Source: Leucoraja erinacea (taxonomy: Eukaryota). From it: 64,000 bases of DNA. The stretch covers positions 16,182,001 to 16,246,000 of the forward strand of contig NC_073390.1 in the NCBI RefSeq assembly GCF_028641065.1. The letters are read 5' to 3'. Position 1 is the first letter of the stretch, and each line of letters begins with the position of its first letter. The position numbers and the translations under genes are program-made. The notes under the pieces were generated by a model. The model was not told where the DNA came from and did no database searches. It saw only the letters and a list, made by a program, of their open reading frames with translations. Shown one piece after another: positions 10,027 through 43,123 of this stretch.

Positions 10027-10644
10027 AATATGTTTGTTCTATTAGGATCTTAAATGGTCATGAAATGGCTTTGGCAAGTCAGATTAAAGAAAATCCCCAA
10101 GCTTTTTATGCATATTATAAAACAAGAGGGTAATCAAGGTGGAGTTCGGTCTAGTTTTATTTGAGGGAAATATCAGTTATTAAGGAATATCATTCAGATA
10201 GCCTTTAAGCAATTTGAAATAAACTAGCGAGCATATAGTTCATGGTGAGGAACAAATTCATTATAAATGTAAAAACAATTATAATGGTGAAAATGATGAT
10301 GTAAAAAGTCTGACAAAAATGCATCAACAAGGTACAAGATATGCAAAGAAGTTGAATTGCACTCCAAAATCTATTCAATCTATCTAAATTAATGTTATTA
10401 AGAGGCACTAATGTCTATGGTACTGCAATGTCAATTACACAGTACAGAAGTAAATGGTATGATTTGCATCACTAAAAATGTGTTTAATTTTTGCAGCCCA
10501 TTGAACATTGAATTTTCTCTCATGCGCTCAGCACCATAGTCCTAATGTTGCTACATTCATCTTTCCTTAATCCATCCCAGGCAATACTAATTGGTATCTG
10601 CATGTACAATACACACAGTAATGCTCCTTGCATTGAAATCTTAC

Positions 10645-10847
10645 CTTCCGAAGTATCTCACTTCCTTGCCGGCTGTTCATATTGTGCTTGGCAACCTCCC
10701 TCTTGTATGTATACTCGTACACCTGGTCGGTAATGTTGAGTAGCAAAAAGCCGGGGCTACTAGTCATATCCTCACAATTATGCACAATACTGTTTTCAGT
10801 ATCAGAAGGTGGAATGGTGTAGCGGAGGATCAGTCCCATTATCAGGC
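10645..10847 (-). CDS. SLC9A9: Sodium/hydrogen exchanger 9 (NHE9), coding exon 2 (203 bp)
   Basis: Acceptor ttctgcttag|GC and donor AAG|gtaag. Encodes (G)LIMGLILRYTIPPSDTENSIVHNCEDMTSSPGFLLLNITDQVYEYTYKREVAKHNMNSRQGSEILRK, matching the NHE9-type GLIMGLILRY...NITDQVYEYxYKRE segment. Phase-compatible with exon 1 (G|GC). Confidence 0.95.
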
Positions 10848-12334
10848 CTAAGCAGAACAAAAATACATTTGGTTTGCACATTTCCACAATTTGACCTGTG
10901 AACTCTTTAGTTACCACTTAAAAATACGTACACATAATCTGCTAATCAGTGCATATGGGTTATAATTATCATAAGCAGGAATCACCAATCCTTTCTTTTA
11001 TGTACTTCATCAATACAAACAAGGATCCCAACCCAAAATGTCACCGATCCATGTTCTCCAGAGATGCTGCCTGAACCAATGTTACTCCAGCACTTATTGT
11101 CTTTTTATTTCAATAGTCTTTTTGTTTGTTTATTGATTATCTTATGCCATTTATTCAGAAAGCTATTACTTTGTTAGATTCATGACATTTCCAATTTCCC
11201 TCACAACACAGAGGAGACTGTTTTAACCCTTTTGCCTACTCACAAAGCAATCCTATTCCCCAACTCATTGCTTGCAAATTAACTAAACATATGACCTGTT
11301 TACACAAGTTTGGTGAGCCAAGAGGCACAAGCTGGTTTGCTACTGTGCTAGTGATCTTTTTACTCATTCAGAGCACAAGGCAGGGCTGGCACCAGAAGAA
11401 AATGGTGGAGATCTGGCGACCTGAACCGTCGCAGTTGGTCTAATGAACATCCTCCAGAGATGGGAAGGGAATTCCAGGATTTTGACCTTGTGATAATGAA
11501 GGAACACCAGTATATTTCAAAACATATTAGACAAACTTGCAGATGGCAGTATTTCCATATTAACTACTCTGCCAACAGGCTTCTCAGCCTCGCGATGCAT
11601 AGAGCTAAGGTGCTTCACTACTGCAATCCAACTGTCGTTTTAAACTGAAATGTCTCAAACCCTTTGCAACTCTTATTCCATACTGTGAAATAAGTTTGAA
11701 ATAAATCACCTAACTTAAAACATAGCATTAAAATGAAAATTGGGATAAAAGAACAACAGATATTTTTGAATATAACTTTAAACAAGGAATGCTTAGCCAC
11801 AGTATTTTGTTCCATTCTTTAACATTTCTTGGATATGCTAAGCTGGAACAATGGAGACTAAAAAGAGATTTAAATGAGATATGTAAAATTATGGGAGGTC
11901 CAGTTTGGTTTGAAAGATTGAGCCTCAGCAGAGAGGTCACTAACTAGAGGCAGAAAAAATAATATTAATGGATAGAGAATCAATTGGGAGTTCAAGAGTT
12001 TTTAATTGTCATAGACTGGAACCTGAGCAATTAAATTATCACTGGCTTCAGCTTTGCAGGCACATTTGCAACTGTGGGGTTTATTCTAATATTGAGAAAA
12101 TTAAAAAAAAATTCTAGGCAGCCAAAAATATATATATTTTTCAAATGTTTACTTAATTGCTTAGAATTCTAAGATAAAAACAGAAAATGCCGGAATTACT
12201 CAGAAGGTCATGCGCCAACTGAAACAGAATCAACATTTCAGGTCAATAACCTTCCATCTACATCACAAAATCACAATCAAACATGTCTTAAATTGTAGTT
12301 AAAGGTGAGTTGTGGAGAGAAGAAATATAATGTA

Positions 12335-17232: not shown

Positions 17233-17634
17233 NNNNNNNNNNNNNNNNNNNNNNNNNNNNNNNNNNNNNNNNNNNNNNNNNNNNNNNNNNNNNNNNNNNN
17301 NNNNNNNNNNNNNNNNNNNNNNNNNNNNNNNNNNNNNNNNNNNNNNNNNNNNNNNNNNNNNNNNNNNNNNNNNNNNNNNNNNNNNNNNNNNNNNNNNNNN
17401 NNNNNNNNNNNNNNNNNNNNNNNNNNNNNNNNNNNNNNNNNNNNNNNNNNNNNNNNNNNNNNNNNNNNNNNNNNNNNNNNNNNNNNNNNNNNNNNNNNNN
17501 NNNNNNNNNNNNNNNNNNNNNNNNNNNNNNNNNNNNNNNNNNNNNNNNNNNNNNNNNNNNNNNNNNNNNNNNNNNNNNNNNNNNNNNNNNNNNNNNNNNN
17601 NNNNNNNNNNNNNNNNNNNNNNNNNNNNNNNNNN
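17233..17634. other. Assembly gap (402 N)
   Basis: Run of N in SLC9A9 intron 1, next to the GC-rich region. Confidence 0.99.
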
Positions 17635-17977: not shown

Positions 17978-18158
17978 CGTAAAACATCGACCCTCCGGTC
18001 TCGTGCAGAAAGCGGACCCTCCGGTGTTTGAACAGAAAAATGGTCAAGATGGTGAGAATGAGTAAAAAGTTAAATATCAACAGTTGCACCGAATCCTGGC
18101 GATGACTTTCTGCGGCGCTGTGGCCCGAGGTGGACTTTGTCTCAAGGTGGAGCACCAT
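17978..18158 (-). CDS. SLC9A9: Sodium/hydrogen exchanger 9 (NHE9), coding exon 1 (181 bp coding)
   Basis: ATG in strong context (tcaagtATGG). Encodes [60 protein letters not shown]. Donor TACG|gtgag at 17977. [11 protein letters not shown] and HETGG are NHE9-type signatures. Confidence 0.93.
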
Positions 18159-21932: not shown

Positions 21933-23126
21933 ACCTTCTGGTGAAGATGCATGCACAGTGCTATTGGGCATGCATTTTCAGAATATGGACCCAGTGATAA
22001 TGAAAGGCAGTGATATATCTTTAAGTCAGGATGTTGTGTGACTTGGAGAGGGACATGCAGGCACTGGGACTGGTGATGTGGGACTTTAGTCCAACGGAGC
22101 AGCGAGAAGACAACGTGACCCAGATGGTGGAGGATCCTGGATGATAGATGCTGCCATCTTGAGGTATAATAATAATAATAATGGATGGGATTTATATAGC
22201 GCCTTTCTAGATACTCGCAGGTGCTTTTGATGGAGGAGAAGGCTGTGGCCATGATGGACTAAGCTGAGTCCTCCACTTTCTGCAGCCTCCTCTTAGGTTT
22301 CTGTGGATTGGAATTGCCATACCAGACATGATACTTTCCACAGTGCATCTGGAGAAGCTTGTTAGCTTATCCAGTGACATGCCAAATCTTTTGAAACATC
22401 TGTGAAAGTAGAGGTACTGGCGTGCTTCCTTCCTGATTATGTCAATGTGCCGGACCAGGACAGGACACCTATAAATTTGCCACTGCTCATTCCATCGGCT
22501 GCTAACCAACCAGTGAAATTAGTACGTGGTCTCCAGACATCCTATGCTCCCTTGTTTATTATATTGTTTAGAATATACTATGTTTGCATATTGTGTTGTG
22601 CTGCTGCAAGTAAGAATTTCATTGTTCTATCTGGAACATATGACAATAAAACACTCTTGACTCTCTTGACTTTCTTGGTCAACAATAGTTCTTGATGATG
22701 TTGCACGAGGGGTTGTTGTTGTGGCACTGCTCAAGCAGATGTTCCAGCTCTTTGTATGCTGACTCCTCACCACAAAGGAGAGAATTAGTCAATGGATAGA
22801 GTCAAAGAACTATGCAATGATTCAAACTGAATACCCATAGGTGCCAGATTTGGCAGAGTGCAGGAATCTCAGAGGGTTGCAGAGCTAGAAATAATTTACA
22901 AGAGAGCCAATGGTGTGATTATGAAAATAAGGATAAACATCTTAAACTCAATGTTGGAGGACGTCTCAGTGTCTATAGGCAGCCGGGTGAACAGAACTAC
23001 ACATAATGTCAACAATGACATGTAGAACTTGACATAAGTTACTATTTGAGAAGCAAAGTTCAGAATAATGCAGCAGAACACACAACGCGAGGAAGGCAAA
23101 CATGCAAATCATTTAAATATATCAAT

Positions 23127-23136
23127 TTTATTTATT
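23127..23136 (-). terminator. Polyadenylation signal (overlapping AATAAATAAA) of the 131-aa gene
   Basis: Two overlapping AATAAA on the minus strand, followed by a GT/T-rich downstream element (GCATGTTTGCCTTCCTCGCGTTGTGTGTTCTG). It ends about 1.2 kb of repeat-poor sequence after the stop at 24310. Confidence 0.6.
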
Positions 23137-24309
23137 TTAAACAATGGGAAGCTACATATAAATTATTTAGTATTTTATCAGGATCAACTGTTAGACCAAA
23201 TTTGATTTGATTGCACTTGAAGAATACAGAAACATTCAAAATTTCTTTTCAATTGAAGTTCAGGACTCATCCCTTAAAAGGAATCATTTTGCAGCAGTTC
23301 ATTCATTTTTAAAATACGATGTGACCAAAATAAAATCAGGAGATGTATCATGTTGAGGATTCATTTAAATTGATTCTGGCAGGTCATCATACTAAAGTGA
23401 GGCTATTTTCTACATTTCAATACAGTTGCAATTGTGTGAATGCTTACACCCACTGGGTTTGAAAACACCCACACATAAAAGCTTGGTCATGAAGCCCAAC
23501 CAAAAGCCTGCCAGAGAGGTGGATGAATTTCCATCAGTTTCAGGCTGCAGATTAGTTCATATAGAACAAAACAGATAGCAACTAAGCGACCATCTATAAT
23601 CCGGACTCTTCCACCTTTATAGTTGATGGAGCATGGGTGGAGAAAGGCAGCCGAGTAGAATGAACTAAAATTGTTTGCAGAGATGCCATGTTCTGTTCAC
23701 TGTGTGGAAGATACTGTGTTCATTGATAGAAGATGAATGCCATGTTTATAACAGAACACTATTCAACATTGTCTCATGAGTCTGGGACCATACTGCAAAT
23801 ATTTAAAGTGACAATTCAATATGCTTAAACTTCGTAGTTTGCATACGCCCAAATCATTCAGTTTAAATACATATCATTATCATTAATTATTGGCAGGTTT
23901 TGGAAATAGCTTAGCTGTTGATTATAGGTGGAGATTAATTTCTAATGTTTTCATTTGTCACAGGTAACAATGTCTCATTTTCTCATGTGTTTCCAACTTT
24001 AAAGTCTTTGAAGGATTCCCACGTCTCGTCAAACAAATTTGCGAGTCGATGACGACACCAACCCATCCTTACTGATGCGTAGTAGAATTAAAATAAAAAG
24101 TGATGCCATGCTGAAGCGACATTAAAAACATTCATACAATTATATATTGCACTTTTTTCCCCCTCATATGTGGCAGCAAAACCATGCTGAGGTTATTCAT
24201 GATTAAGTACAGAGCTGGCAGACCAGCTAAGGTTTCAATTTCTTTTTCCCCCAGGAGTATACATATCTATTGCAAACATACAAACTGGGCTGCCAGAGGA
24301 TCTACACTT

Positions 24310-24514
24310 TCACCATTCAATAGACCCAGGTTGTGAAGTCAGTTCGACAAAATCTTCATTGTAGTTTACTGGCACTGACAACACTATGTGGATCTTGAAG
24401 TTAACGACATTCAGTTCCTTATATTCGTCCAATTTGCTTTTCAGCTCTGATCGATCTTTCACAGCCTCTGCTCTCTCCTGTCCATCAGACGACTTGTGGC
24501 AAAAATATAAAGCC
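24310..24514 (-). CDS. Unidentified 131-aa protein, terminal coding exon
   Basis: Acceptor gtaacaatttttttactttatgcag|G, then 67 stop-free codons ALYFCHKSSDGQERAEAVKDRSELKSKLDEYKELNVVNFKIHIVLSVPVNYNEDFVELTSQPGSIEW-TGA. The leading G completes the AG left by the exon at 32003. Confidence 0.72.
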
Positions 24515-24979
24515 CTGCATAAAGTAAAAAAATTGTTACACTTCCTTCAGTTAAAGTATTCTGTTCTACATAAAAAGGACCTTTATTTGCTTCCTTGTGG
24601 AGATGGTAACAGTTCATTCCAGCTGGCAAGCCTGTTATGTTCACTTCTGGCACATCATTTAGGAATTCTGAAAATTCTGAAAATATGCACAATAATCTGC
24701 AGTAAACATTTGGTTCCATACAGCATGGTTAATGCAACAAAAACAAAAACAAATGTGTTGGAAGGAACTGCAGATACTGATTTATCCCAAAGATAGACAC
24801 AAAATGCTGGAGTAACTCAGTGGGTCAGGCAGCATCTTTGGAGAAATGGAATAGGTGATGTTTCGTGTCCGAACCATTCTTCAGACTCAATATAATATAA
24901 CACCAAAAGTATAATACTTTTCTACACTTACCAGATAGCATTGCATCAGTGGGCTGTTACAAAAAAAGAAATTGGCATA

Positions 24980-25592
24980 TCTATATAATTAAAAGTCTCA
25001 TCTTGACCAATTCCTGTCTGCGCTGTATATTGATTTTAGAAAAAAATGCTACAGTGTATCGCTGTGATTTTTGGCCATCTTACTCACGTCAATGAAAATT
25101 TAAAAAATTAAAAAATTAAAAGTTTAAAAAACCTTGAGATCAGCTGATTGGTCCTCTCGCCTGTCAATCATCTAGATGAAGGTAACACCCCTTCCGGAGG
25201 GTGGGAGGGAGGTGGGGCAGGACTATAAAACCCCGGCTGCCTGGACGTGAGTCAGTCACTCTGCAAGATCGCGAGGGAGAGGCCACGACTGTCATTTTTA
25301 GCTGTGAACTGTGAGTCTGCAATGTACTTGCAATAAATGATTTGTTTGCCCTTAATGACAATGCCATGAGTTGTTTGGCCTGCTGCCCTGTCTGTGCTTG
25401 AAAGTGCAATGCTTTATTAGGTGTTCGTGAGTGTGAGCGAATGTGTGTGTGAGTGTGAGTGTGAGTGTGAGTGTGAGCGCGCATGTGTGTGTGTGTGTGC
25501 TTATGTGGGAATTGGTGGAGGGGTGGGATATCGTGTTGGGGGACCAGCCCTCCTGTGTGAAGCTGGGACCCAACGGGTCCCACTTAGTCTAG
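24980..25592 (+). mobile_element. Non-autonomous Helitron (same terminal family as 12335-13259)
   Basis: Host A | TCTATATAATTAAAAGTCT... ; hairpin TGGGACCC-AAC-GGGTCCCA (25564-25582); ...CTTAGTCTAG | host T. Internal (TG)/(GTGTGA) microsatellite. Confidence 0.87.
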
Positions 25593-26003
25593 TAATGGAT
25601 AAATTCTGCTATCCCAATCTGGTCTTAATCTTACAGCAATGGAGTTGACTTCTGACCACACTCTGAAATGGCCTAGCAATTAGGGGTAAATGCTTGCCAG
25701 GGACCTTGTGAAATTAGGGGTAAATGCTTGCCAGGCCAGGAACACTTCCACGGGTGCTCCATCACTCAGAGGCTGCTGCTGTCCTTTTATCGGTGTGCAA
25801 TAAAATTAAGGATGCACACTTAGTAGGGTTGACAACCCAAACTCCTTAGGATGACAAAAAAATGACATCCCTACCCCGGACAAATGTGAGATTCAGATCC
25901 ACAAACAAGGAGTCGAACACTGCTATTAGGAGATACAGACTTTTAGTCAGAGCTTTGTCTGTGATTTTGTGCAGCTTTCTACCCCGATGAGCTGCTAGGA
26001 ATA

Positions 26004-26625
26004 TTCAATCAATCAATCAATCAATCAACTTTAGGAGTTTTTAGTCTTTATTGTCATCTTGCAAAGCAACAATTGTACAGTGCAAAATGAGAAGACGTTT
26101 CCCAGGGAATACCGGAGCATCGCACATAAAAAAAACATTTCACACATAATAAAAAAATGAAAACAATCCAGTCCCTGATGAAACAGTACAAATAGTTAAA
26201 AAGTGCAGGTAAAACAGCAACATTAAAATACAGTAATACAGTAAAAACAGTCATAAAATGTCCAGGGCAGCTGATTTAAGTGGCCAGTGCCAGAGTTATT
26301 AAAATGTCAGTGCAAAGCAGCAAAATCAGGTGGAGTGACTGTTTAGCAGCCTCACAGCCTGTGGCAGTTAGCTGTTTAGCAGTCTGGTAGTCCGGGCTTT
26401 GATGCTATGGTATCTCTTGCCTGATGGCAGGAGATCCAGATGTGTGTGGAGGGGGTGCAGTTTGTCCTTAGCTATTCTCTGTGCTTTTTTCAGACAGCGG
26501 CTCTGGAACAGTTCTTGTACCGAGGGTAGGGAGACGCCAATGATCCTTTCTGCTCCCCTCACTACCCTCTGCAGAGCCTTCCTGTCTGAGCAGTTACAGT
26601 TGGGGTACCACGTGTTCATGCAGTA
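26004..26625 (-). mobile_element. Rex1/Babar-type LINE 3' fragment with (ATTG)n tail
   Basis: ORF 26368-26628 has ALQRVVRGAERIIG...HPLH...LLPSGKRY...RTTRLLNS, the conserved C-terminus of this clade. Similar decayed fragments lie at about 22100-22480, 28130-28487, 43124-43520 and 53220-53990. Confidence 0.8.
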
Positions 26626-27324
26626 CATTCATTCAGTTAGGATTGACTGTTTTATTTAGATTTGGGTATCAGGCAGGAAAGTAGATTAGATATGAATCAT
26701 CTGTCATCTTTGTGCCTGAGGAGCAGTGATGTTCACTCTTGTTTCAAGTTCTTTCATCTGTGTAATGTAAACTTGATTCAGGTTAATTTGTTGAAATATC
26801 AGACAGTAATTTAAGGCTTTGTGGAAAACCCTCTCTGCAATTTGTTGATTTCTATAACCCAATTCCCCCTGCAGTGATGTTGTTATTTCAGCGGCTTTAT
26901 CAAGAGTACAAGATTAAGATAGATACTCAAAGAGGGAGATCATTGTAATTCTGTGTGGACCCTGGATAGAAGATTGAGTGCAAAACTCACACACACTGTT
27001 CCTGAAATACATTACAAGCTATTTTAACTTCTAAGCCTCATTTAAATCGCTCATCCTGGAAGGAGCTTAGAGGGAGGATTATGTGGCATGATAATTTACC
27101 TGATGGGAGGGCAGGGCCGGACAGAGGGAGTGTTGGCTCAGTCAGTCTCTCATTCAGGAAGTAGAAACAAGAAACTGCAGGTGCTGGTTCACACAAAAGG
27201 ACGCGGAGTGATGGAGTAACTCAACAGGTCATGCAGCATATCTGGAGAACACGGATAGGTGACGTTTCTGGTCGGGACTCTTCTTCAGATTCCCACCCTT
27301 GCATTACTCCTCATAACCCTCTCA

Positions 27325-27334
27325 GCCCCCCCCC

Positions 27335-27373
<39 letters not shown>
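27325..27373. repeat. Poly(C) tract
   Basis: About 48-nt C run with one A interruption. The length may be a sequencing or assembly artefact. Confidence 0.9.
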
Positions 27374-28487
27374 AGCAGTACCTCTCCTGAGCTTCCCTCC
27401 ACCTCTCTGAGCCCAGCCCTCACCCCAGTTTTGTTTTCATGATCCCCCCTGAGATTTCTCTTTCAGATGCAGAACGGTCGGTCCTCAAGAGCCCTTACCT
27501 TTGCCCCTCTACCCCTACCTCAACGAATTCCAGGCCCGCCATGATGTACAACTCTCTTTCCTCATATACATCTTCAGGCCTTTTTCGATGGAAAGGTCCT
27601 CGCCTCAGCTTTGATGACCTCTTCTGACATTCCCCCTCCTCTTTTGGACCCCCCCTCACCCCTGATGGCCTTCTACCATGTCTGGACCTTTTATAAAATA
27701 TTAATCTGAAGCAGGGACCTGACACAAAACGTTACCTCTCCATGTTTTCAGGAGATGCTGCCTGATCCATTTACTTACTCCAGCACTTGCAATCAGGAAG
27801 AACAGCGATGCCAATAGCTACATCTCATCCCGACATTGCTTGATGCTGAATAAAAGTAAAGGATTTTCAATTGTTGAAGGATGGTCGTAAGGCAAATAGC
27901 AGGGAAATCAAGTTAGAAATATAATGTACTCTCTGTTCAGCACTAGGCCAGAGATCTGTCAGGATTGATGGTCAAGTTAACTAACTGCTATTAAATGTTA
28001 TATTGGCTTCTATGGTAGTGAATACAATTTAAAAAAAAAAAAGTCAACGAGTTTTCACCACTGATGGGCTGATTTAGGTTGATTGGTTAAAATTTATTTC
28101 TAAGTTCCTAATCTAGCCTTAAACTCATACTGCCTCAGCAAGGCCACCAGCATAATCAAGGACAAGTTGTACCCTGCCACTCCCTTTTCTCCCCTCTCCC
28201 ATCGGGCAAAGGGTGTAGAAATGTGAAAACGCACAACTTCATATTCAGGGTTTCTACCCAGCTGTTATCAAGCAACTGAACCATGCTACCAACAACTAGA
28301 GAGCGGTCCTGCACTACTACCTACCTAATTGGAGACCCTTGGACTATCTTCAGCCTTTACTGGCTTCATCGTGCACTATACATTATTCACGTTATTCCCT
28401 TGATCATGTATCTGTACATTCTGGATGGCTCGATTATCATCATGTATTATCTTTCTGCTGACTAGTTAGCACGCAACTAAAGCTTTT

Positions 28488-29047
28488 GAATTGAATTGTA
28501 TACTTTATTGTCACATGGGACAAGTCACAGTGAAATTCTTTGCTTGTATACCCAAGGTATGCAAATAGTCGCCCATAAAGGGCGCTTACAACGTTACAAA
28601 TTCCCCACCCACGCCAGTTCCCTCTTTGGTCTTCCCCCTCTACCCCCTCCCTCACGGCAGTTCCCACACACTGGATCCCCATTGTCCATTGTTCTTTTGC
28701 CCTCCCCCTCGGCGGTCCTCCCACGCCAAGTCCCCGTTGCTCTCCCCCCTTCCTCATGGCGGTCCCCTCACCCCGTGTCCTACTTTGTTCCTTCCCTTGG
28801 CAGCGGCATCCTCACTTCCACGTGTCCGTCACCATCATCGACGCCGCATCGACCTCTCCATTAATGTTATCGGGGCCTGTCCGTACTCCTCTGTGACGTC
28901 CACCTAGGCACCAGCTATGGGCTTCATCGACCCGCGAGGCTCCACCACCGACTAGCTAGGTACCGGCCCGCATGGCCTGGGCTCCAGCCCGCGAGGCCAA
29001 GGCCGCGAGGCACCGGCCTTGGCTTCTCAGCGGCACCGCCGGAACTT
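28488..29047 (-). mobile_element. GC-rich non-coding interspersed element with a GTGACAATAAA...(CAATT)n-type tail, inserted in a Rex1-like 3' UTR
   Basis: It interrupts ...CTAAAGCTTT | CGGTATACGTGACAATAAACTAAAC, which is contiguous in the adjacent similar tail at 29140-29236. CpG-rich 5' part. Confidence 0.55.
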
Positions 29048-30288
29048 CGGTATACGTGACAATAAACTAAACTCATTTCAACACGCCTTGATAATTGGTG
29101 ACGTGTGGGAAGTCTGTGTGGGCTTTAGGTGGTGACAATCGATTGTAATCATGTATTGTCTTTCCGCTGACTGGTTAGCATGCAATAAAAGTTTTCACTG
29201 TACCTTGGTGCACATGACAATAATCTAAACTAAACTACCTTCAGGAAAGTATGGGAAATACTAAATTCACAGAATCAGGATAGGAGAGAGGTGTGGACTG
29301 ATTACCATGCTATATACAAAAAGCAGAAGGTATAAAAACCCATCAAAAAGCAGGAGATAACTGGTGCCAATCATTATGGCCTGGAAACAGTAGGAAACAA
29401 TAGGGTTTAAGAAGGGAAACAATGGAGTTCAGAATCAAATACGATTTGTAGTGAGTTACTGGAATCCTAAATTATATCTGTAAATTATCTCCGTAGTGTA
29501 TGTTCTGACAATGAAGTTTATTGAATTTCTAACAAGTAGTTGTAAAAAGTGCCTTTCTTTTAGTACTGAATACTGAATAAATACCGCTATTTAAATCTAC
29601 AGTATTTTATCCAAAGAAACTGGCTGAGCAAAATAATAATAGCTACATCTCATCGCTAACCCATTAACTTTGAGCTTCAATTCTAAACATTCGAATTCTA
29701 AAGGGGGAGCCTGCGTGTTTTGTAACTTTGTCAGTGCGTATACATCGTGTATTCAAGCAAAGAATCTCACTGTGCTTTGTCACATGTGACAATAAAGTAT
29801 TCCTATTCCTATAGTTCTTCGTAAACTCTGCAGTAAGCTTGCACAGATCTGCAAAGAACTAGAGTGAAAGATGCATGGTGAGGAACATAGGATATCAATT
29901 ACATTTGTTTACTTATCATATCTGAACACACTAGAATGAATAGTATATGCAATAAAATAATATACAATAAATCTTGATGCAAAAGTTGATGCCCATTAAA
30001 CACAAAAAGTGGAATACAGAACAATACAGCACAGAAACAGGCCCTTTAGACCATGATGTCCATGCCAAACTCGATGTCAAATCAGCATCTCCTCAGCATG
30101 CACATCCTTCAATTCCCTGCATTTCCTAGTGCCTCTCTAAAAGCCTCTTAAATGCCACTATCGTAGCTGCCTCTCCCACCAGTCCTGGCAGCATGTTCCA
30201 GGCACCCACCACATCCCCTGTAAAAAACTTGCCCTACACATCTCCTTTAAACTTTCCCCAACTCATCTTAAAGCTATGCCCTTTAATC

Positions 30289-30577
30289 TTTAGAGATAAA
30301 GCAGGGAAAGAGTCCCTTCGGCCCACCATGTCTGTCCCGACCTGCGTTTCCCCCGTACACTAACACTATCCTACACACTAGAGACAATTTACAATTTTAC
30401 CAACGCCAATTAATCTGCTCGTCTTTGGAGTGTGGGAGGAAACCGGAGCACCCGGAGAGAACCGACGTGGTCACAGGGAGAACCTACAGACAGAGTCCAT
30501 ACAGCCAGTACCCGTAGTCAGGATCGAGCCTGGGTCCCTGGCACTGTAAGGCAGCAACTCTACCGCTGCACCACTGC
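30289..30577 (-). mobile_element. V-SINE nested in a CR1 3' fragment (about 30015-30760)
   Basis: tRNA-like head at 30577 and a V domain. CR1 sequence continues on both sides. Confidence 0.8.
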
Positions 30578-32002
30578 AAATTTGTCTTTGACATTTTCAC
30601 CCTGCGACAGAGGTTCTGACTGTCTACCGTATCTATGTCTCTCATAATTTTATATACCGATCAGGTTACCCATCAGCCTCCAATATTCAGAGAAAACAAC
30701 CCAAGTTTGTCCAACCTCTTCTTACAGCCAATACCCTCGAATGCATGCAGCATTCTGGTACTGATTTATTGATAAAGAATTGGTTCCTTTAATTAACCTC
30801 TTAAAAACATGGAATGAAATTAAAACAAAGCAATGGTTCTTACTGCAGATAAGAAAATGGAACATGGATCATAACTGGAGTGTGAAGAAGGGTCCCGACC
30901 TGAAACATCATCTTTTTCCTCCAGAGATGCTGCCTGACCTGCTGACTTACTTCAGCACTTTGTGTCTATAACTGGAACAATGTTGTGCAACCTTGTTTAT
31001 TCGTGCACAAACATTCTCAAATTCTCAAGGGAATTCACCTTACTCTCATCTCATCCATCTTACAAGCACAGGGAGCTACTGGATTTTTTGATTATTAAAT
31101 TGAGGCTAATAGGTCGGCAGCTTCTCTCTCTTCCACATACCCACTGAGCTCCACATATGCTACTATTCCTGCTTTTGCCCCTAAAGCCCTTACTCCGCTA
31201 TCTTTAAGAGCCCTATCTAACTCTCTCTTGAAAGTATCCACAGAACCGGCCTCCACTGCCCTCTGAGACTGAGAATTTTACAGACTCACAACTCTCTGTG
31301 TGAAAAGTGTTTCCTCATCTCCGTTCTAAATGAAGAGAGAGTGCCGGAGTAACTTAGCGGGCCAGGCAGCATATCTGGACAGCATGGATAAATTAGGTTT
31401 CAGGTTGGGACCCTTCTTCTGATCCACAACGTCACCTATCCATGTTCTGCAGAGAGGCTGCCTGACCGGCTGAGGCACTTTGTATCTTTTTTTGTAAATC
31501 AACATCTAAAGTTCCTTGTTTATACTAGCATCTTTTTCCAGTAGTTTTACTCCTGTCTTCTCTTTTGTCCTCGTTAACATGCCTATTAAATTAATCACAT
31601 CTCCTGTCTTCCTTCTGAGGGAAGGAACGCAGACTTCCCAGTCTAGTGCATTAGTAACCTGACACATCAACGTGGATGACTGGCAACAGTTTGTCCTCAT
31701 TGCCACTCATTAGCATTTAGGGATGGATGATAAATGCTGGACTTACTAGCTAAGTCCACCTGCCATGAATAAAGTATTGTAATACATTTGTTGTCGCCAA
31801 TCTTCTTAGAAATAACCCTATCCCTCTGCCCTTGCAAACTCAACTGAACTCTATTGTCAAAAAATTAAGTTATCGCCCGATGAACCTCAATTTTCATCAA
31901 GTTGTCAAAAGTCAGCAAATGGTCAGGTTGAGCCTGTGACAGTACAGACACTTCAGGCTTCGATAAACATTGCATGGCAATTACTCCAAATGATTCATGT
32001 AC

Positions 32003-32193
32003 CTGAACCCAGTGTTTGCGTAGCTGACCTTCTGCCATCCACGCTCCTGAAGAAAAGGCTTTATTACTTTTTTATGAATATCTTTTGGAGCTCCGCCGGG
32101 AGTGGCCACAGTCATGTAAAACAAGTTGCTGTCTTCACCATGCTTCTGAGAGGATGTGATTTCATCCATTATTTCCTGAGTGCTGATATCCAT
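32003..32193 (-). CDS. Unidentified 131-aa protein, first coding exon
   Basis: Acceptor ttgatttccag| at 32213-32214, 19 nt of UTR, Kozak context CCGCCAACATGG. 63 codons MDISTQEIMDEITSSQKHGEDSNLFYMTVATPGGAPKDIHKKVIKPFLQERGWQKVSYANTGF + AG, then donor CAG|gtacat (phase 2). Non-repeat sequence. Confidence 0.72.
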
Positions 32194-32424
32194 GTTGGCG
32201 GATTAAATTATTCTGGAAATCAACGCAACAGTTGACACTCTGTGAAGGAGAACGTGAGTCATAAGATGCCAGATTTTAGCCTTCATCAAAATAACATGTT
32301 TTACATGAATCTTAAATAAGATCTGTTTGGGAAACTAACATATTTTTGACTACACACATATTTTTACAGCAAAATATGTCTTTTTGAAATGACAATTCTG
32401 ATCACTATCGTCATAGTCATTGTG

Positions 32425-34058: not shown

Positions 34059-34872
34059 CTGCTGTAGGCCTCACATTGCAGCGGCCTCTGCAGTCCGTTT
34101 GTCTTTTTGTTATTTTTTGTCCCGTTTTAATGTAGTTTTTATTTTTTTTTGATGGGGTATGTGTGTGTGGGGGGCAAACTTTTAAAATCTTTCCCCTGCA
34201 CGGAGAACCCGACCTTTTCCCTGTCGGGTCTCCGTTGTCGTTGGGGCTGCAATGTGGAGCGTCCTCCAGCAGGAACGTCCTGGGGCCCCAGTCACGGAGC
34301 TGCGGAGCTACTCACCATCATGGAGCTGGCCGTGTCCGGAGCGGGTGGAGCTGTGGTGGCGCGCTGCTGTGACCCGACCCCCGGAGATTCGGAGGCTTAC
34401 CGCAGGTCTGGCAGACAATAATATTGGGAGCCCGCGGGTCCCTGGTGGGAGACCGCTTTTTAAGGCTTCTGCAATGGCGACTTCACCCGCCCGAGTCGCG
34501 CGGTTGAGGATGACCTGGAGCGGGGCCTTACATCACCGCCCGGCGCGGCTTCAACGGTTGCGGGACTTTGCTAGAGCCCGCCGGGGACTCCAACAACAAG
34601 ACCCGGAGCGTGGCCTTGTATCGCCCGGCGTGGCTTTAATGGCCGCGGGACAATTGCCATCGCCCGCCGGGAGGGGAATGGGGAGTGCAGGGGAGAGATA
34701 AGTTTTTTTGCCTTCCATCACAGCGAGGAGGAGATGCGCTGTGATGGATGTCTGTGTAAATTGTGTTGTGTCTTGGGTCTTTTTTTTTCATGTGTGTATG
34801 ACTGCAGAAACAACATTTCATTTGAGCCTCTATGAGGTTCAAGTGACAAATAAATTGTATTGTGTATTGTGT
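34059..34872 (+). mobile_element. CpG-rich non-coding interspersed repeat (SINE-like, LINE-type tail)
   Basis: Sharp GC/CpG-rich block ending in GACAAATAAATTGTATTGTGTATTGT, resembling Rex1/L2-type tails. No credible ORF. Confidence 0.5.
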
Positions 34873-37800
34873 AGGGTCTCCACTGAGTGCTTCAGTTCCC
34901 TTCCACATCCTGAAGCTGTGCTGGTATATTAATTGGCTTTTGTATATTAATTGGCCTTTGTACATTACCTAGCATGGGTAAATGGAAAAAGAATCAAAGG
35001 GTTGTTAATGGCCATGAAAGAAATAATAGGTATCAGGGGTATAGGTCCTTTGCCCGAGATGTGATGGGCTGAATGGCTTTCTGCTGTGTCATAATAAGAA
35101 TTCGGTCAACCTCAGTTGTCATTATACTCATCAAATGAATTCCCTATGGGAGAGAATATCAAACTATCATCTCAATTCTGGTCATTGGTTTAAATTGCAT
35201 TGGGCTCTCCAGAAAGATGAAACAGTCTCTCAGCATTTATTCGGTGACACAGAGTACTGTGTGATGACTTTTCATTCTTTTAATCTCTCGAATAAAGTCT
35301 TAGACCATTCAATTTCACAAGGTTATCTCCTCACCCCAAAATCAATCTATTGGAACTTATTACATAATCGCATGGGAAGGTGTATCTTTGGAGACTGTGA
35401 TTTGTGATTTGATTTGTGTAGAAGTGTCTCAAATCCCTCTGATCAACAACACAGTTTTAAGGCGAGAGGGAAACCTTTAAAGGAGATATGTGAGGTAATT
35501 TTGTTTACACAGCGAGTGGTGGGTGGCAGGAATGCACAGTCATGGGTAGCGGTAGAAACATTTCAAATGCTTTTGGATAGGCACATTAATATGCAGGGAA
35601 TGGAGGGAAATAAATTATGTGCAGCCAGTTGAGATTAGTTTAACTTGGCATCATTTACGGCATGGACATTGAGAGGTGAAGAGACTGTCCCTCTGCTGTT
35701 CTGTTCTATATACCTCACCATTATATATACCTGCACTTGAATTTGGTTGTTTGCAGCGTGGACTGCCTTCTGCGCATGCGGAGCAGCCTACCACGCATGC
35801 GCAGTCCAAGTTTCTTGGTGGGTTTTTCAAACATGGATTGTCCTTATCTTAACAGTATCTTAGGAAATCTGCCTCGCTCATGTCAGCCGCTTCCCGCAAA
35901 TCCTTTAATTCTGACAGTGCGATCAAGGGACCAAATGAGGTTGCTCGTCTGTCGGAAGTTAAGGATTTGCGGGAGGCTGAAATTAGTGAGGCCGGCGAGC
36001 GGCAGGAGAGAGGTGTTCAGCCGGAGAGTACTGCCAGAGGTGAGCTGGCCTGCAGAAGGCGCTGAGGTCCCGGCGGCCAGTTCCGCTGTCTGGTCCCGGC
36101 GGTTGCTCGCAGCGACCCGAGTTGCTTCCCTCCCCGGCCACAATGCGGTGGCTCTGCGTCCGGAGTGCCGCGGCAGTGGTGAATGAGTTGCTGGCAAAAT
36201 GAATTGTTACTTTCTATATTTTTATTTTTTTGAGTGTGAGAAATTCTATGTCCCACCAGCCATCTTTCAAAATTTAGCAACTCAAAATGGGGGTGCGTTT
36301 TCATTGACGGGAAATACTATACTTTATTAAGTGATATGGCTTTTGAGGACTTTATAAAAGCCGACTGACAGCTTATGGAGAGGAGAACAATCTGCACATG
36401 TGCGGTTTAAGATTTTTTAAAAGCCGACTGAATGCCTACCCCGAGTAATTACTCACGGCACGTGCCTGCTATTTATTCACCATGCTTTGTATTATTAGCT
36501 AACTCACATACAATATTTGGAGCAAAGAAATGTTGATGCGGCAAATCTGTAACAAGGAGAGAATGCTGGAAGCATTCACAGGTCAAGCAGCAAGAGCATT
36601 AAGGAAAAAAACTGCAGATGCTGGATTTCAGCAAGCAGCGCTATGCGTGGTCCATTAATCTAAGGCATTGATATTGATTGCTGAGGATAAGACCCAAGCA
36701 GTCATCCTTGAAACATTCCATGAGTTACCATTCTGAAAAGTATTCTCTTTTTTGTCCATTAGCCAATCTTAATCAATGGCAATATATATATATATTTTTT
36801 TTTTATAATATTTATCTTATTAGAAGCAATTGTACAAGGAGAAAGTAATCGACATAGCTATTATACAATATTCGTCCAACTTCAGTTTTAACATTTTATA
36901 AACTGATAAGTAAATCGGAAAAAAGAAAAAAGGAAAGAAGCGAACGGAAGAAGAAAGGAAAAAGAAAAGAATTTCAAAAAAGATACGGAAAAGGAAAAAG
37001 AAAAACCCTTGAATTAACAAAGGAGTGAAAAAAAAGCAGAGATATATCCCACTACCCTTACCTACGCCCGCTCACCTGACCCTAGCGTCGGTTTTGAATT
37101 TGTGTTCAACCATTATGTTGTTGAAGAAATTCAATGAAAGGAGACCATATTTTGGAAAATTGATCCGATTTGTCCGACAAAACAAGCCTTATTTTGTCTA
37201 AATGTAGTGTCTCGGTCATTTCTGTGATCCACATCTTCACTGTGGGAACTGTTATCCTTTTCCAGAATTTAAGTTTTTTCGCAGTTATTAAACCATAGTC
37301 AAGGAAGCGTCTTTGGAATTTCGTTAACTTAGGGCAGCCCTCTGACATTCCTAATATTATTAATTTTGAATCTGACTCCAATTGAATTTTGAGTGTTTTA
37401 TAAATGGTATTGAATATTCCCATCCAGAAGTTTTGTATTTTTATACAGGATGCAAAAGAATGGGTTAGGGTAGCTTCTTGGAAGTGACATTTATCACAGA
37501 GAGGGAAGACAGTTGGGAAAATCTTGTTCAGTTTGATCTTTGAGTAGTATAACCTATGCAATACTTTGAATTGTATCAGGCAATGCCTGGCATTTAAAGA
37601 ACAGTAATGTATGTATTGTAGGCTTTCCTCCCATATATCTTTTGAAATGGGTAAACCCAGCTCGTCCTCCCATGCTCGCCTATAAATCTCAGAAGGTGGG
37701 GTGTCAATATTTAGAAGAGTGTTATAAATGTAAGATATCAACTTACTTGTATCGGCATGTCTATTCAAACAATCGTCTAATATATCTGGACCCATAAGAG

Positions 37801-39241
37801 GACAGTCTTGTGTATATGTTTTCACATAATCTCGGATTTGAAGGTATCTAAAAAAATTGTTGCCGTTCAAGTGATATTTCTCCTGTAGTTCTTGAAAGAG
37901 AGAGAGAGTCCCCTTCTTATAGAGGTCTCCCACAGTATTGATTCCCAGGTTCTTCCATTGAACAAACACCATATCTAAAGTAGACGGTTTAAACGAGGGA
38001 TTGTTTGCCATAGGAAGAAGGAGGGACATGTTTCTCAATTTAAGACTGAATTTCAGCTGTTTCCAGATACGGATAGTACTATGTATTATCGGATTTTGCT
38101 CATATGTTGACTTATTCAAATGTATTGGAGATAGGAGGATCGAGCCTATACTAAAAGGCAAACAATCTTCCCTCTCCATTTTTAACCAATTTACATGTTG
38201 ACATGTATCGTCCAACCAGAAAGTTATATTTTTAATATTAGTTGCCCAGTAGTAAAAAAGAAAATTAGGTTGAGCTAATCCTCCATTTTCTTTGGATTTG
38301 CACAAATGTCTTTTGTGTATTCTATGGGTTTTGTAGTCCCAAATAAAGTTAGTGACAATAGAAAACATTTTTTTTTAAAAAGCTTTTAGGGAGATATATC
38401 GGTATTGATTGAAATAAATATAAAAGTTGTGAAGGAAGATCAACTTTATGGCATTTAATCTACCAATAAGGGAGATAGGAAGTGTTTTCCAAAATTGAAT
38501 GTAGGCATATAGTTTAGTGATTAATGGTGGGAAATTTATTTTAAACAGAAAGGAATACTTTCTAGTCACGTAAATTCCAAGATATCTGAACTTTTCAGTA
38601 ACAATTCTGAAAGGAAATTGCTGGTGTTGAGAAGGGTCTTGTTCTTTTATTGGCATGATTTCACTTTTATTCCAATTTATTTTGTATCCAGAGAAAGAAC
38701 CAAATTGTTCTATACTGTTTAGAACATTTGGAATACTAACTTGTGGATTAGTAATGTATAAAAGTACATCATCTGCATATAACGAGATTTTATTGGTGGT
38801 TTATTCGGTATTGTATCCATAAATGCCTGAATGGGACCTGATACTCTCGGCAAGAGGTTCTATGACTAAAGCAAATAACATTGGAGAAAGGGCACATTCT
38901 TGTCTGTTACCCCTAGATAAATAAAATTTAGGTGAAAGCATTTGATTTGTCAGTATTCTAGCTGTCGGATTAGTGTATAAAAGCTTCACCCATAAAGTAA
39001 AGTTTTCTCCCTATTGAAATTTTTCCAACACTGTGAAAAGATAAGACCCTTGCACTCGAAAGCTTTTTCTGCATTAATAATTGTTAGATCTTCATTTGGC
39101 ATTCTCTGCAAATATATTATGTTTAACAAACGTCTCAAATTATAAAACGAGTGTCGTTTAGGTATAAAATCAGTTTGATCTGGATGTATTAGTTTACAGA
39201 TAACCAAGCTTAATCTACGAGCCAAAGCCTTAGCTAGTATC

Positions 39242-39905
39242 ACCTCTCGTACCACCTTCCCTCTCGTACCACCCCCTCCCCGGGCACTTTCCCTTGCAAC
39301 CGCAAGAGATGCAACACTTGTCCCTTTACCTCCCCCTTCGACTCCGTTCAAGGACCCAAGCAGTCGTTCCAGGTGCGACAGAGGTTTACCTGCATCTCCT
39401 CCAACCTCATCTATTGCATCCGCTGCTCTAGATGTCAGCAGATCTATATCGGTGAGACCAAGCGGAGGTTGGGCGATCGTTTCGCCGAACACCTCCGCTC
39501 GGTCCGCAATAACCAAGCTGACCTCCCGGTGGCTCAGCACTTCAACACCCCCTCCCACTCCGTCTCCGACCTCTCTGTCCTGGGTCTCCTCCATGGCCAC
39601 AGCGAGCAGCACCGGAAATTGGAGGAACAGCACCTCATATTCCGCTTGGGGAGTCTGCATCCTGGGGGCATGAACATCGAATTCTCCCAATTTTGTTAGT
39701 CCTTGCTATCTCCTCCCCTTCCTCAGTCCCCCTGCTGTCTCCTCCCATCCCCCAGCCTTCGGGCTCCTCCTCCTTTTTCCTTTCTTGTCCCCGCCCCCCC
39801 CACCCCCGATCAGTCTGAAGAAGGGTTTCGGCCCGAAACGTTGCTTAATTCCTTCGCTCCATAGATGCTGCTGCACCCGCTGAGTTTCTCCAGCTTTTTT
39901 GGGTA
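39242..39905 (+). mobile_element. 5'-truncated Penelope-like element (GIY-YIG endonuclease + terminal repeat) inserted in the L1
   Basis: ORF to 39699 with NLIYCIRCSRCQQIYIGETKRRLGDRFAEH. 14-bp TSD CCTTAGCTAGTATC at 39228-39241 and 39906-39919. Confidence 0.93.
39811..39845 (+). ncRNA. Minimal hammerhead ribozyme-like motif in the Penelope terminal repeat
   Basis: CTGAAGA-A-GGG(TTTCGG)CCC-GAAA-CGTT contains the conserved CUGAnGA and GAAA boxes around a short stem II and a palindromic ACGT stem III. Minimal hammerheads are an established feature of PLE terminal repeats. Confidence 0.7.
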
Positions 39906-40192
39906 CCTTAGCTAGTATCTTCTGATCCGTATTTAAAAGGGCTATTGCCCTATAGGATCCAGGCTCCTCGAGATTTTTTATCTTTTTTTGGAATTAATGT
40001 AATAGTTGATTCAGCAAGAGTTTGTGGTAAAGTCTGTTCTTTAAATGCTTGAATATAAAAGGCTTGTAAGCGTGGAGAAATTAAATCATTACATTTTTTA
40101 TAAAATTCGTTACTAAACCCGATCGGGCGAGGAGTTTTTCCACTTTTCAATGATTTAATAGTCTCTACGGTGTCTTTTGTTGTTATCTCTGC

Positions 40193-40890
40193 TAATTCAT
40201 CCCGTTGTTCCTCATTAAGGAATGGGAGATTGCAATTCTTGACATGGGGTTGCTCTGGTATATGTGCCGCCGGAGCTTAAGGACTGTCTGTTTGTGTTTA
40301 TCCGCAGGGACTCGCACCGGACTCGGCTGAAAGGGTCCTTTCCGGGTGTTGTGTCCCGGCATCGTGACTTTTCGTTTGGATGTCGGGGTTCTATAGGAAA
40401 TCTTTCGGTGGCTCCCCTCAAGCCCGCCCATCTGGATATCGATAGCCCAGTGGTGGTGGCTCAACCCCGGCGTAGAGGTCGTCCGCTGGCCATTCCTGTT
40501 GCGCCTGTTTCCCCTGTAACTTTGCCCTCTGCTGGCTCCGTTCCCGCTAGTTCCTCTCCTGTACCGCCGGTTGTGTCTGTTCCGCTGGTCTCCACCCGGT
40601 CTGGTCGCCTCATTCGGCCTCCCGCCTCCTTACCTCGGGTTCTGGCGTGGGGCTCCTATAGGAGCAGCTAATGGTGGGTTGGGGAAATGCGAACCCTCGT
40701 TATTGGTTGGCGCCATCACCTGACCACGGGTGTTGGTTCGCGGGCTTTTCTCCTCAGTCGACAGCGCTCCTCCCGAGTAGCAGGAGCTATTATACGGTTA
40801 TTTGACCCGGCAAGCGGATTCTGAGTTATTTTCTTGTTTTCCATTCAACAATAGAAATTGTTTAACTTAACGTGCCTGTCTCGCTAAAGT
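40193..40890 (+). mobile_element. Gypsy-type LTR retrotransposon 3' end (integrase tail + probable LTR)
   Basis: ORF 40264-40671 has VFIRRDSHR...LKPAHLD...STRSGRLIRPP, typical of the Gypsy integrase C-terminus. A short G-rich tract at about 40647-40653 is followed by about 230 bp of LTR-like sequence. Confidence 0.7.
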
Positions 40891-41168: not shown

Positions 41169-41769
41169 CTGCAGGACAAAATACTAATCCCAGAAGAAGG
41201 TGCCTGGGCCCGGCACGTCACCTGCTCATTTCATTCCACGGATGCTGCCTGACCTACTGAATTCCGCCTTTATGCTTAGGATTCCAGCATCTGCTGACCC
41301 TTGTCTCCACTCAATATTAATGTACTAGTGGAAGTTGTCAAATTAAGATATAACATTGATAAATGACCATCAACATGTCCCTTCCTCTCTATCCTAAATC
41401 GAGCAATTCTGGGAGGGGTCTCAGGAGGTGGAGTGCCAAATTGGTCATGAATGATCCCAACAACCTCTATGCTGATCATTATCATCATCGTCGCCAAGTA
41501 ATTGAACAATGCTGTTAAAAGTGTTTTCTTTTTCAACATTGGTAATGTTATGATACAATAACCAACCCCTTGGGTCCCAATCACCCAGAATTGCTAATAT
41601 CCAAATGCTACTGCAAGAACATTATTGCATACAGAATTTTTCATACTGCATGAAAAGCTCAAATTTATTTTTCAGCCTGTATTTGAGCACTGTGATTGCC
41701 AGCAGCATCATGCTGGGTTACGCCTCTGACGTCATCTGCTGTTATTCTGCACCTGCACTGCAGTCATGC

Positions 41770-43123
41770 ACCCCACCACTGGAAGAGGAATCTGCCAAAT
41801 AACTATAAATAATTCTAAGTGTGGAAAAATCACCAGGACTAGAGACCTCTATCTGAAGATGTGGCCCAATTTTGCAATCTGTTGAACGGAATAAAGGGTA
41901 GTCAAGATATTACTGTCAAAACTGCTATACTCAAACAACCAGCAACACTTAAGTTCTCAAGGACTACATTTGCTTGCTTGAACATCGCAGTGTCGTGGTT
42001 TACTGTCAAATGCATTTTTGAGCACATTCCCTGCATAGTTTATTATGAAGGCATGGAATTGAATAAAATGGCCATTTTCATTTCAGAATTTGAAATAAAT
42101 TTGGTGACCAATGTGAAATTATCCTCCATTTTGCCGAGAATATAAAGGAAAGGGAAGATGGGTGGCTAGGAAAGGAGGGGAAACAAGGGATAGTGGGCAA
42201 GCATCTGTGCCTGACTACATGGGCATTTGTGTACATGTAACTTTTGGCGAACACCTGCATACCTGTCCACCTTTGTGTGCTATGTAACAAGGAACTGCAG
42301 ATGGTGGTTTAAACCAAAGATAGATACAAAAAGCTGGAGTAACTCAGCGGGACAGGCAGCATCTCTGGAGAGAAGGAAAGGGTGACGTTTCGGGTCAATT
42401 CTCCAGTATTTTGTGTCTATCTTCACCTTTGTGTGCTAATTTCCCTGCAGTGGACCTATCTTAGATCCTTTTTCCATTGGATGAAAACCTCAAGCTGTCC
42501 GCAAAAGCTATTCAACACTGAAAGAGGCAATGTACATGCTACTTCCACTCCTCACTTGCCTGAAGTAAGTGAGGAGGTGAACACAATCCTGTCCTCATGA
42601 ATGCAGCTTCTGTAAAGATGGTCAACAGCTTCAAGTTCCTTGGCATATAGATCATCAGCAACTTTTTCTGCAGCATGTGCCCCATCATTGGATGAGGAGT
42701 CTGCCAAATTGATATAAATAATGTTGAGAGTGAAAAAATGGCCAGGGTCAGAGATCTCTATGGGAAGATATGGCCCAATCATGCAATCAACTCATGAAGT
42801 TATCGTCAATCCTGCTGTACGCAAACAGCCAGCAGCAGTTACATTCTCAAGGACCACTTTCGCTTGCATGAATATTGTAGCATTGAGGTTTACCATTGCA
42901 TTTTTGAGCACATTCCTGCATTGGTTATTGTGAAAGCATGGAATTGAATTAACTTAGGTCTCTCATGTCAGTTTTTATTTCAGAGGTTGAAATACATTTT
43001 GTCAACAAAGTGAAATTATCTTCCAGTTTGCTGAGAATGGAAGGGAAGAGAAAGGGAAGGTGGTTGGCCAGGAGAGGGGGGAAACCAGGAAAGGACAGTG
43101 GACAAGCAGTTGTGCCTGAGAGC
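41770..43123. repeat. Two diverged copies (about 41770-42213 and 42663-43123) of an unclassified element of about 460 bp
   Basis: Colinear blocks such as TCTGCCAAAT, TGGCCCAAT, TTCTCAAGGAC, TGCATTTTTGAGCACATTCC, GCATGGAATTGAAT, GTGAAATTATC and TGTGCCTGA. The second copy is flanked by AGATCA(T/C)CAGCAAC direct repeats. Confidence 0.85.

Follow-up and report, generated by a model that had tools for sequence, protein, structure and literature searches.

A 64,000-nucleotide (nt) stretch of the Leucoraja erinacea genome (assembly GCF_028641065.1, contig NC_073390.1, positions 16,182,001 to 16,246,000 of the forward strand; 'the window' below, in whose numbering all coordinates are given) carries, on the minus strand upstream of SLC9A9, what is almost certainly a genuine spliced protein-coding gene. 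Its product of 131 amino acids (aa) belongs to a family whose fold and function are undescribed. On the evidence of protein sequences, the gene is of old chordate descent, with copies in tunicates and in cartilaginous fishes. The reading we prefer, at a probability of a little under 40%, is that it encodes a nuclear, metal-independent module that engages nucleic acid or chromatin and is tied to DNA replication or repair.

Gene structure and splicing

The start codon lies at 32193, in GCCAACATGG, and the coding part of the first coding exon (exon A, 32003..32193, minus strand) supplies residues 1–64, which span the predicted N-terminal helix, β1, α1, β2 and the start of β3. A phase 2 GT–AG intron of 7,488 nt (24515..32002, minus; donor CAG/GTACAT), 22% of it covered by repeats, separates this exon from exon B, whose coding part (24310..24514, minus) stays open for 67 codons, adds residues 65–131 and ends in a TGA that finishes at 24310. 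Both coding parts matched shark and tunicate proteins in tblastn searches. The 3′ untranslated region (UTR) of ∼1.2 kb (23115..24309, minus; end approximate) closes with a double, overlapping AATAAA polyadenylation signal (23127..23136, minus; hexamers at 23136 and 23132), followed by a GU-rich stretch. Measured within the window, repeats cover 0% of the coding exons and 3′ UTR, compared with 32% of the window as a whole. The original prediction, made from the letters of the window, had described the in-frame splice, the 131-aa product, the open exon B frame and the repeat-poor 3′ UTR with its signals, and all are present as described. Neither the repeat cover nor Pfam pointed to a transposon open reading frame (ORF), which it had named as grounds for refutation.

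The predicted junction was also found in translated sequences, the only level at which the two relevant proteins, P0003 and P0007, are known. P0003 has 131 aa, crosses the exon junction and differs from the window product at residues 37 and 76 only. Its longest contig measures 1,651 nt, close to the 1,632–1,642 nt expected of an mRNA that runs from acceptor 32240 to the poly(A) site, and is far below the size needed to hold the 7,488-nt intron. P0007, which has 72 aa and a contig of 1,611 nt, matches a splice to the same acceptor from an alternative donor, AAG/GTCAGC (32023..32031, minus, cut at 32029/32028), which precedes the main donor by 26 nt, with 71 of 71 residues identical after the first. 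Use of this donor shifts the frame, giving 64 aa from the ATG and a stop in the last exon. A separate ATG exon for the unusual N-terminus of P0007 was sought and none was found; the internal donor accounts for it. With exon A alone as the query, three proteins were recovered among the seven candidates.

Exon A also contributes 5′ UTR (32194..32239, minus), which contains no upstream ATG. An acceptor 19 nt before the start codon had been proposed, and an AG does exist there (32213), with a pyrimidine tract score of 0.65. The AG at 32240, 46 nt before the ATG, has a better tract (0.76) and no competing AG, and the stretch that two shark models have in common ahead of this methionine is exactly 15 residues long, which places their exon start 44–46 nt upstream. 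For both reasons the exon more likely begins after 32240 than after 32213; an AG at 32238 is a further candidate. The N-terminal extensions by which these shark models differ from the window product probably represent in-frame 5′ UTR.

Orthologues in sharks and tunicates

Shark orthologues with 73–82% identity were found in Chiloscyllium (a gene model), Hemiscyllium (LOC132821417) and Cetorhinus (LOC144693956), and tunicate orthologues with 44–51% identity in five species: two of Ciona, Clavelina, Phallusia and Styela (LOC100177587 in Ciona and Phallusia, H2ZDS5 in Ciona savignyi, LOC143449293 in Clavelina, LOC120346967 and LOC144425776 in Styela). All are annotated as 'uncharacterized'. The shark and tunicate proteins continue across the same exon junction. 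Four unnamed tunicate-like ORF fragments (P0014, P0016, P0018 and P0019) start or stop at the junction residue, which suggests that tunicate-like genes have an intron at the same position. Tunicate orthologues share the core of the window protein and add an insert of 30–65 aa between β3 and α2. It is acidic and resembles a SUMO-interacting motif (SIM) in the Styela type; Ciona, Clavelina and Phallusia carry a C4 insert in the same loop. Two Styela clava paralogues, P0013 and P0142, have the same longest-contig value.

The tunicate orthologues refute a gain of the gene in the skate's own lineage, one of two origins the original prediction had offered. The other, loss in mammals, fits the data, and its scope may extend to all bony vertebrates, judged from protein sets. 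The protein-set matches included no name from bony vertebrates, cyclostomes or amphioxus, in searches of imperfect recall: one missed the Styela proteins, another missed its own queries P0003 and P0009, and clustering at 50% hides relatives. From this distribution we consider loss in bony vertebrates probable. Retention in sharks is unsurprising on its own, since PMC8455134 counts 208 families that cartilaginous fishes have retained and bony vertebrates have lost, a known class. The orthogroup supplements of that study may include this family.

The prediction's description of the gene as hidden and unrecognised has to be narrowed. The gene is not hidden in a strong sense because unnamed models of it exist for other sharks (RefSeq models in Chiloscyllium, Hemiscyllium and Cetorhinus) and for tunicates; what is undescribed is the family, with its fold and function. 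Pfam returned nothing for P0003 at E ≤ 1, and none of 23 relatives reached a curated cut-off. Searches with 38 proteins against PHROGs, NCBIfam and PADLOC gave only weak matches, each limited to a single one of the 38, PDB sequence searches gave a best E no lower than 0.027, and the ESM Atlas held no usable match for P0003 or P0009. Six gene identifiers and one accession were named in no paper within the literature covered, which leaves out most subscription journals. In the searches run, we are thus dealing with a protein family without a Pfam, PDB or literature entry that is ∼50% conserved between tunicates and sharks.

A large sister subfamily

Among 1.84 billion representatives, a profile search found 34 matches at E ≤ 0.001, 22 of them in a second group, which grew on further searching to 122 proteins, fragments counted (within the range P0021–P0145). 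Homology between this sister subfamily and the chordate group is firm at the level of sequence profiles: hhalign gave a probability of 98.95 over 120 columns, and the reciprocal profile score was 55.6 bits versus ≤3.4 for reversed controls. When 11 rows of the chordate group and 25 sister rows picked at random were placed in one tree, the groups separated at 100/100. Sister proteins are unnamed, continuous ORFs, very diverse, with an acidic insert after β1 and basic runs. Since several rows often share one longest-contig value (eight at 537,651 nt, four at 40,560 nt), many copies per contig are suggested. Pfam showed weak recurrences in at most five of 37 sister proteins. The subfamily had no match in GTDB genomes (19 and 74 pattern matches, 0 confirmed), in 50,697 phage records or in plasmid records.

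Two sequence features set the sister proteins apart. Like PCNA-interacting protein (PIP) box proteins of replication and repair, many end in Q-x-x-h-x-x-aromatic; with the PIP-box consensus taken from PMC7225939, a relaxed motif occurred in the last 20 residues of 55/122 (shuffle mean 1.5) and a canonical one in 14/122 (mean 0.0). The motif QxxhxxAA was found in none of 21 chordate-group sequences, the window protein included. In addition, W-x-K-V-x-D-x-D is present in 82/82 full-length sister proteins and in 0/11 chordate proteins. As the 82 rows were selected from the 122 through motifs in β1 and at the C-terminus, part of the conservation at F25, T31, L109, P112 and Y115 follows from the selection itself; the hairpin, H40, K55, R64 and R85 lie outside this filter. 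We found no literature joining PIP box, transposon, PCNA and sponge.

Predicted fold and comparison with known systems

The modelled structure is a single 15-kDa α/β domain with a ferredoxin- or palm-like topology, α0-β1-α1-β2-β3-α2-β4-α3. Foldseek searches of PDB and BFVD, viral structures included, gave no match at E ≤ 0.001. Conservation across the two groups is confined to His, Lys, Arg, Tyr and Ser; as no acid is shared, these residues would fit a metal-free binding or catalytic surface.

Several known systems share parts of this architecture. GGDEF diguanylate cyclases (6khu, 8wcn, 3pjx) have a palm-like fold with a leading helix that the predicted model matches, and are defined by a GG[DE]EF hairpin and a β1 aspartate. 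Class III cyclases and palm polymerases bind metal through two aspartates, on β1 and in the β2–β3 hairpin. The family differs from GGDEF and class III cyclases (1azs, 4p2x) in lacking their signature motif, metal-binding aspartates and sensory domains, at ≤16% identity: GG[DE]EF occurred in 0/145 proteins, and a β1 Asp/Glu in 0/11 chordate and 0/82 sister proteins. A class III cyclase or palm polymerase site was likewise rejected, with a hairpin D/E in 1/11 chordate proteins and the hairpin DxD, present in 82/82 sister proteins, unaccompanied by a β1 acid.

The ferredoxin-like fold of Cas2 and VapD is also matched by the model. In both enzymes a catalytic Asp closes β1; from them, and from GhoS, the present family differs in having an extra N-terminal helix, no β1 aspartate and no profile match. 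IS200/IS605 TnpA (Y1-HUH) is similar in size and secondary-structure string and took the top Foldseek ranks (E 6e-3), with a TM-score of only 0.30 and a root-mean-square deviation (rmsd) of 8–9 Å; unlike TnpA, the window protein is the product of a spliced host gene. Y1-HUH enzymes have H-hydrophobic-H on the central strand; here the central β3 reads R-A-L-Y-F in 11/11 chordate proteins, and H-x-H occurs only on β4, in 2/11. RNA-recognition motifs (RRMs) are marked by RNP1 and RNP2; here β3 has G-F at an RNP1-like place, the other positions differ, and Pfam gave no RRM match.

Proposed function and alternative explanations

What favors a nuclear replication or repair module are the motifs that relatives add to the core: PIP-like boxes in the sister subfamily, SIM-like motifs, and C4 motifs with basic and cyclin-dependent kinase (CDK)-type sites. 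The last combination occurs in four of six named tunicate proteins. SIM-like acidic motifs occur in four of six non-C4 sequences, by a pattern defined after inspection and in carriers that are related. PMC4422126 describes SIMs and PIP degrons as means by which DNA-damage proteins are recruited or regulated. Under our proposal, the gene, built of two coding exons plus one or more non-coding exons upstream, would yield the 15-kDa core domain, to which relatives would attach targeting motifs. In the sister subfamily these would be boxes that resemble PCNA-binding ones, and in tunicates either SUMO-binding-like motifs or a C4 zinc finger with basic and CDK-type motifs. The shark and ray form would be the bare core, reaching its site via a partner, perhaps through the conserved C-terminal helix. 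Nuclear location, nucleic-acid contact and a replication role are all inferred only. Weighing against them, the window protein is acidic (isoelectric point 5.55) and has none of the relatives' nuclear-type motifs.

There is hardly any chance that the locus is not a functional gene, whether as a chance splice, a pseudogene or a transposon ORF. The main donor is indeed only moderate, as had been remarked in the prediction, and an out-of-frame donor is also used; however, the 131-aa frame is intact, the contigs are transcript-sized, and orthologues with 44–82% identity across chordates refute the idea. Possible, though unlikely, and compatible with a nuclear module, is that the gene is a domesticated copy from a mobile element or eukaryotic virus that lost its DxD hairpin and PIP box. 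The 122 unnamed, diverse, continuous sister ORFs with shared longest-contig values would fit such an origin, as would the all-or-none split of W-x-K-V-x-D-x-D and the patchy distribution over chordates and the sister group. A host gene expanded in tandem would, however, give the same picture, the gene is single-copy in the window with a conserved intron, and neither the phage, plasmid and GTDB searches nor the viral structures at E ≤ 0.001 yielded a match.

Of rather low probability is a generic ligand- or protein-interaction domain in the style of ACT, PII or dimeric-barrel proteins, with no tie to DNA and with the relatives' motifs as later additions. Against it, two separate branches gained nuclear-type motifs, and H, K, R and Y residues that never vary suggest a specific site. 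We find it improbable that the protein is a metal-independent ribonuclease or strand-transfer enzyme of the Cas2/VapD/GhoS/Cas6 or Y1-HUH kind, acting through H40, K55, R64, H106 and Y115. The transposase superpositions are poor (TM ∼0.3, rmsd 8–9 Å), the β1 acid and central H-x-H are absent, and hhalign probabilities to E. coli Cas2, CasE and GhoS were 4.5, 0.5 and 0.1 (single sequences, hence low power). The resemblance to Cas6 and GhoS went unsupported in these alignments, and both fell outside the top-50 structural lists, although kinship with them may still hold. Very doubtful, too, is a nucleotide or cyclic-nucleotide receptor that is akin to GGDEF or class III cyclases but catalytically dead.

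A wider and quite speculative scenario, which we think improbable as a whole, would make this an undescribed palm-fold enzyme family. Its sister branch would be an enzyme that modifies nucleotides or DNA while tethered to PCNA, and would belong to a mobile element or virus, so far unrecognised, in marine eukaryotes. The shark–tunicate gene would be the domesticated, catalytically rewired descendant of that branch in genome maintenance, retained ever since tunicates and vertebrates parted but lost from the bony vertebrates. The large unnamed sister group may signal a mobile element not yet described. The analysis offers a predicted fold together with a testable lead, a PCNA- or SUMO-linked module without standard catalytic residues, and a knockout in Ciona would make the function of the gene testable.

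Candidate promoter and neighboring features

Upstream of the gene, 35725..35803 (minus) is a candidate promoter and non-coding first exon, judging from two NRF1-like GCGCATGCG palindromes followed by a donor-like CAG/GTATAT at 35731. The surrounding CpG-rich interval, 35680–36200, holds both palindromes and a plus-strand GAG/GTGAGC-like site near 36035, and may be a bidirectional promoter.

The neighbor on the same strand, ∼5 kb downstream, is SLC9A9 (NHE9-like), as had been predicted. Its coding exon 1 (17979..18158, minus) lies in a CpG island and scored slightly better against NHE6 (59.4 bits) than NHE9 (52.8), whereas exon 2 (about 10627–10854, minus, by sequence match) clearly favored NHE9 (80.6 versus 54.8); NHE7 was absent among the matches of these exons. 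An 'ESHRQDS' stretch in exon 1 is closer to NHE6 than to mammalian NHE9 structures, possibly an ancestral state. Intron 1 contains a 402-nt assembly gap (17233–17634). DIPK2A has a kinase-like domain and, in human, lies on the opposite strand to SLC9A9. The present gene was tried as DIPK2A and rejected, in agreement with the prediction: it shares the strand of SLC9A9, P0003 has no Pfam family, and the model is small and ferredoxin-like. DIPK2A was not seen among 121 ORFs of at least 55 aa at 33–64 kb (repeat-rich ORFs excluded, one added by hand), a scan with four Pfam matches, retroelement-derived in appearance. Human C3orf58 (DIPK2A) adjoins SLC9A9 according to PMC7441318. PMC3023760 does not mention SLC9A9, and nothing relevant was found in the literature on slc9a9 synteny in shark.

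An Rfam scan of 18,000–40,000 gave no match. Two CpG-rich, unique-looking intervals (34200–34700 and 28900–29050), situated between and within parts of the gene, resemble repeat fragments. At ∼41550–43100 a segment a few hundred bases long is locally duplicated; the plus-strand ORFs there, 82 and 100 aa in length, resemble pieces of hydrophobic proteins and had no Pfam match. On the minus strand, 37100–40300 holds a decayed L1-like element (RVT_1 match), broken by a GIY-YIG Penelope-like fragment (plus, 39238–39696).

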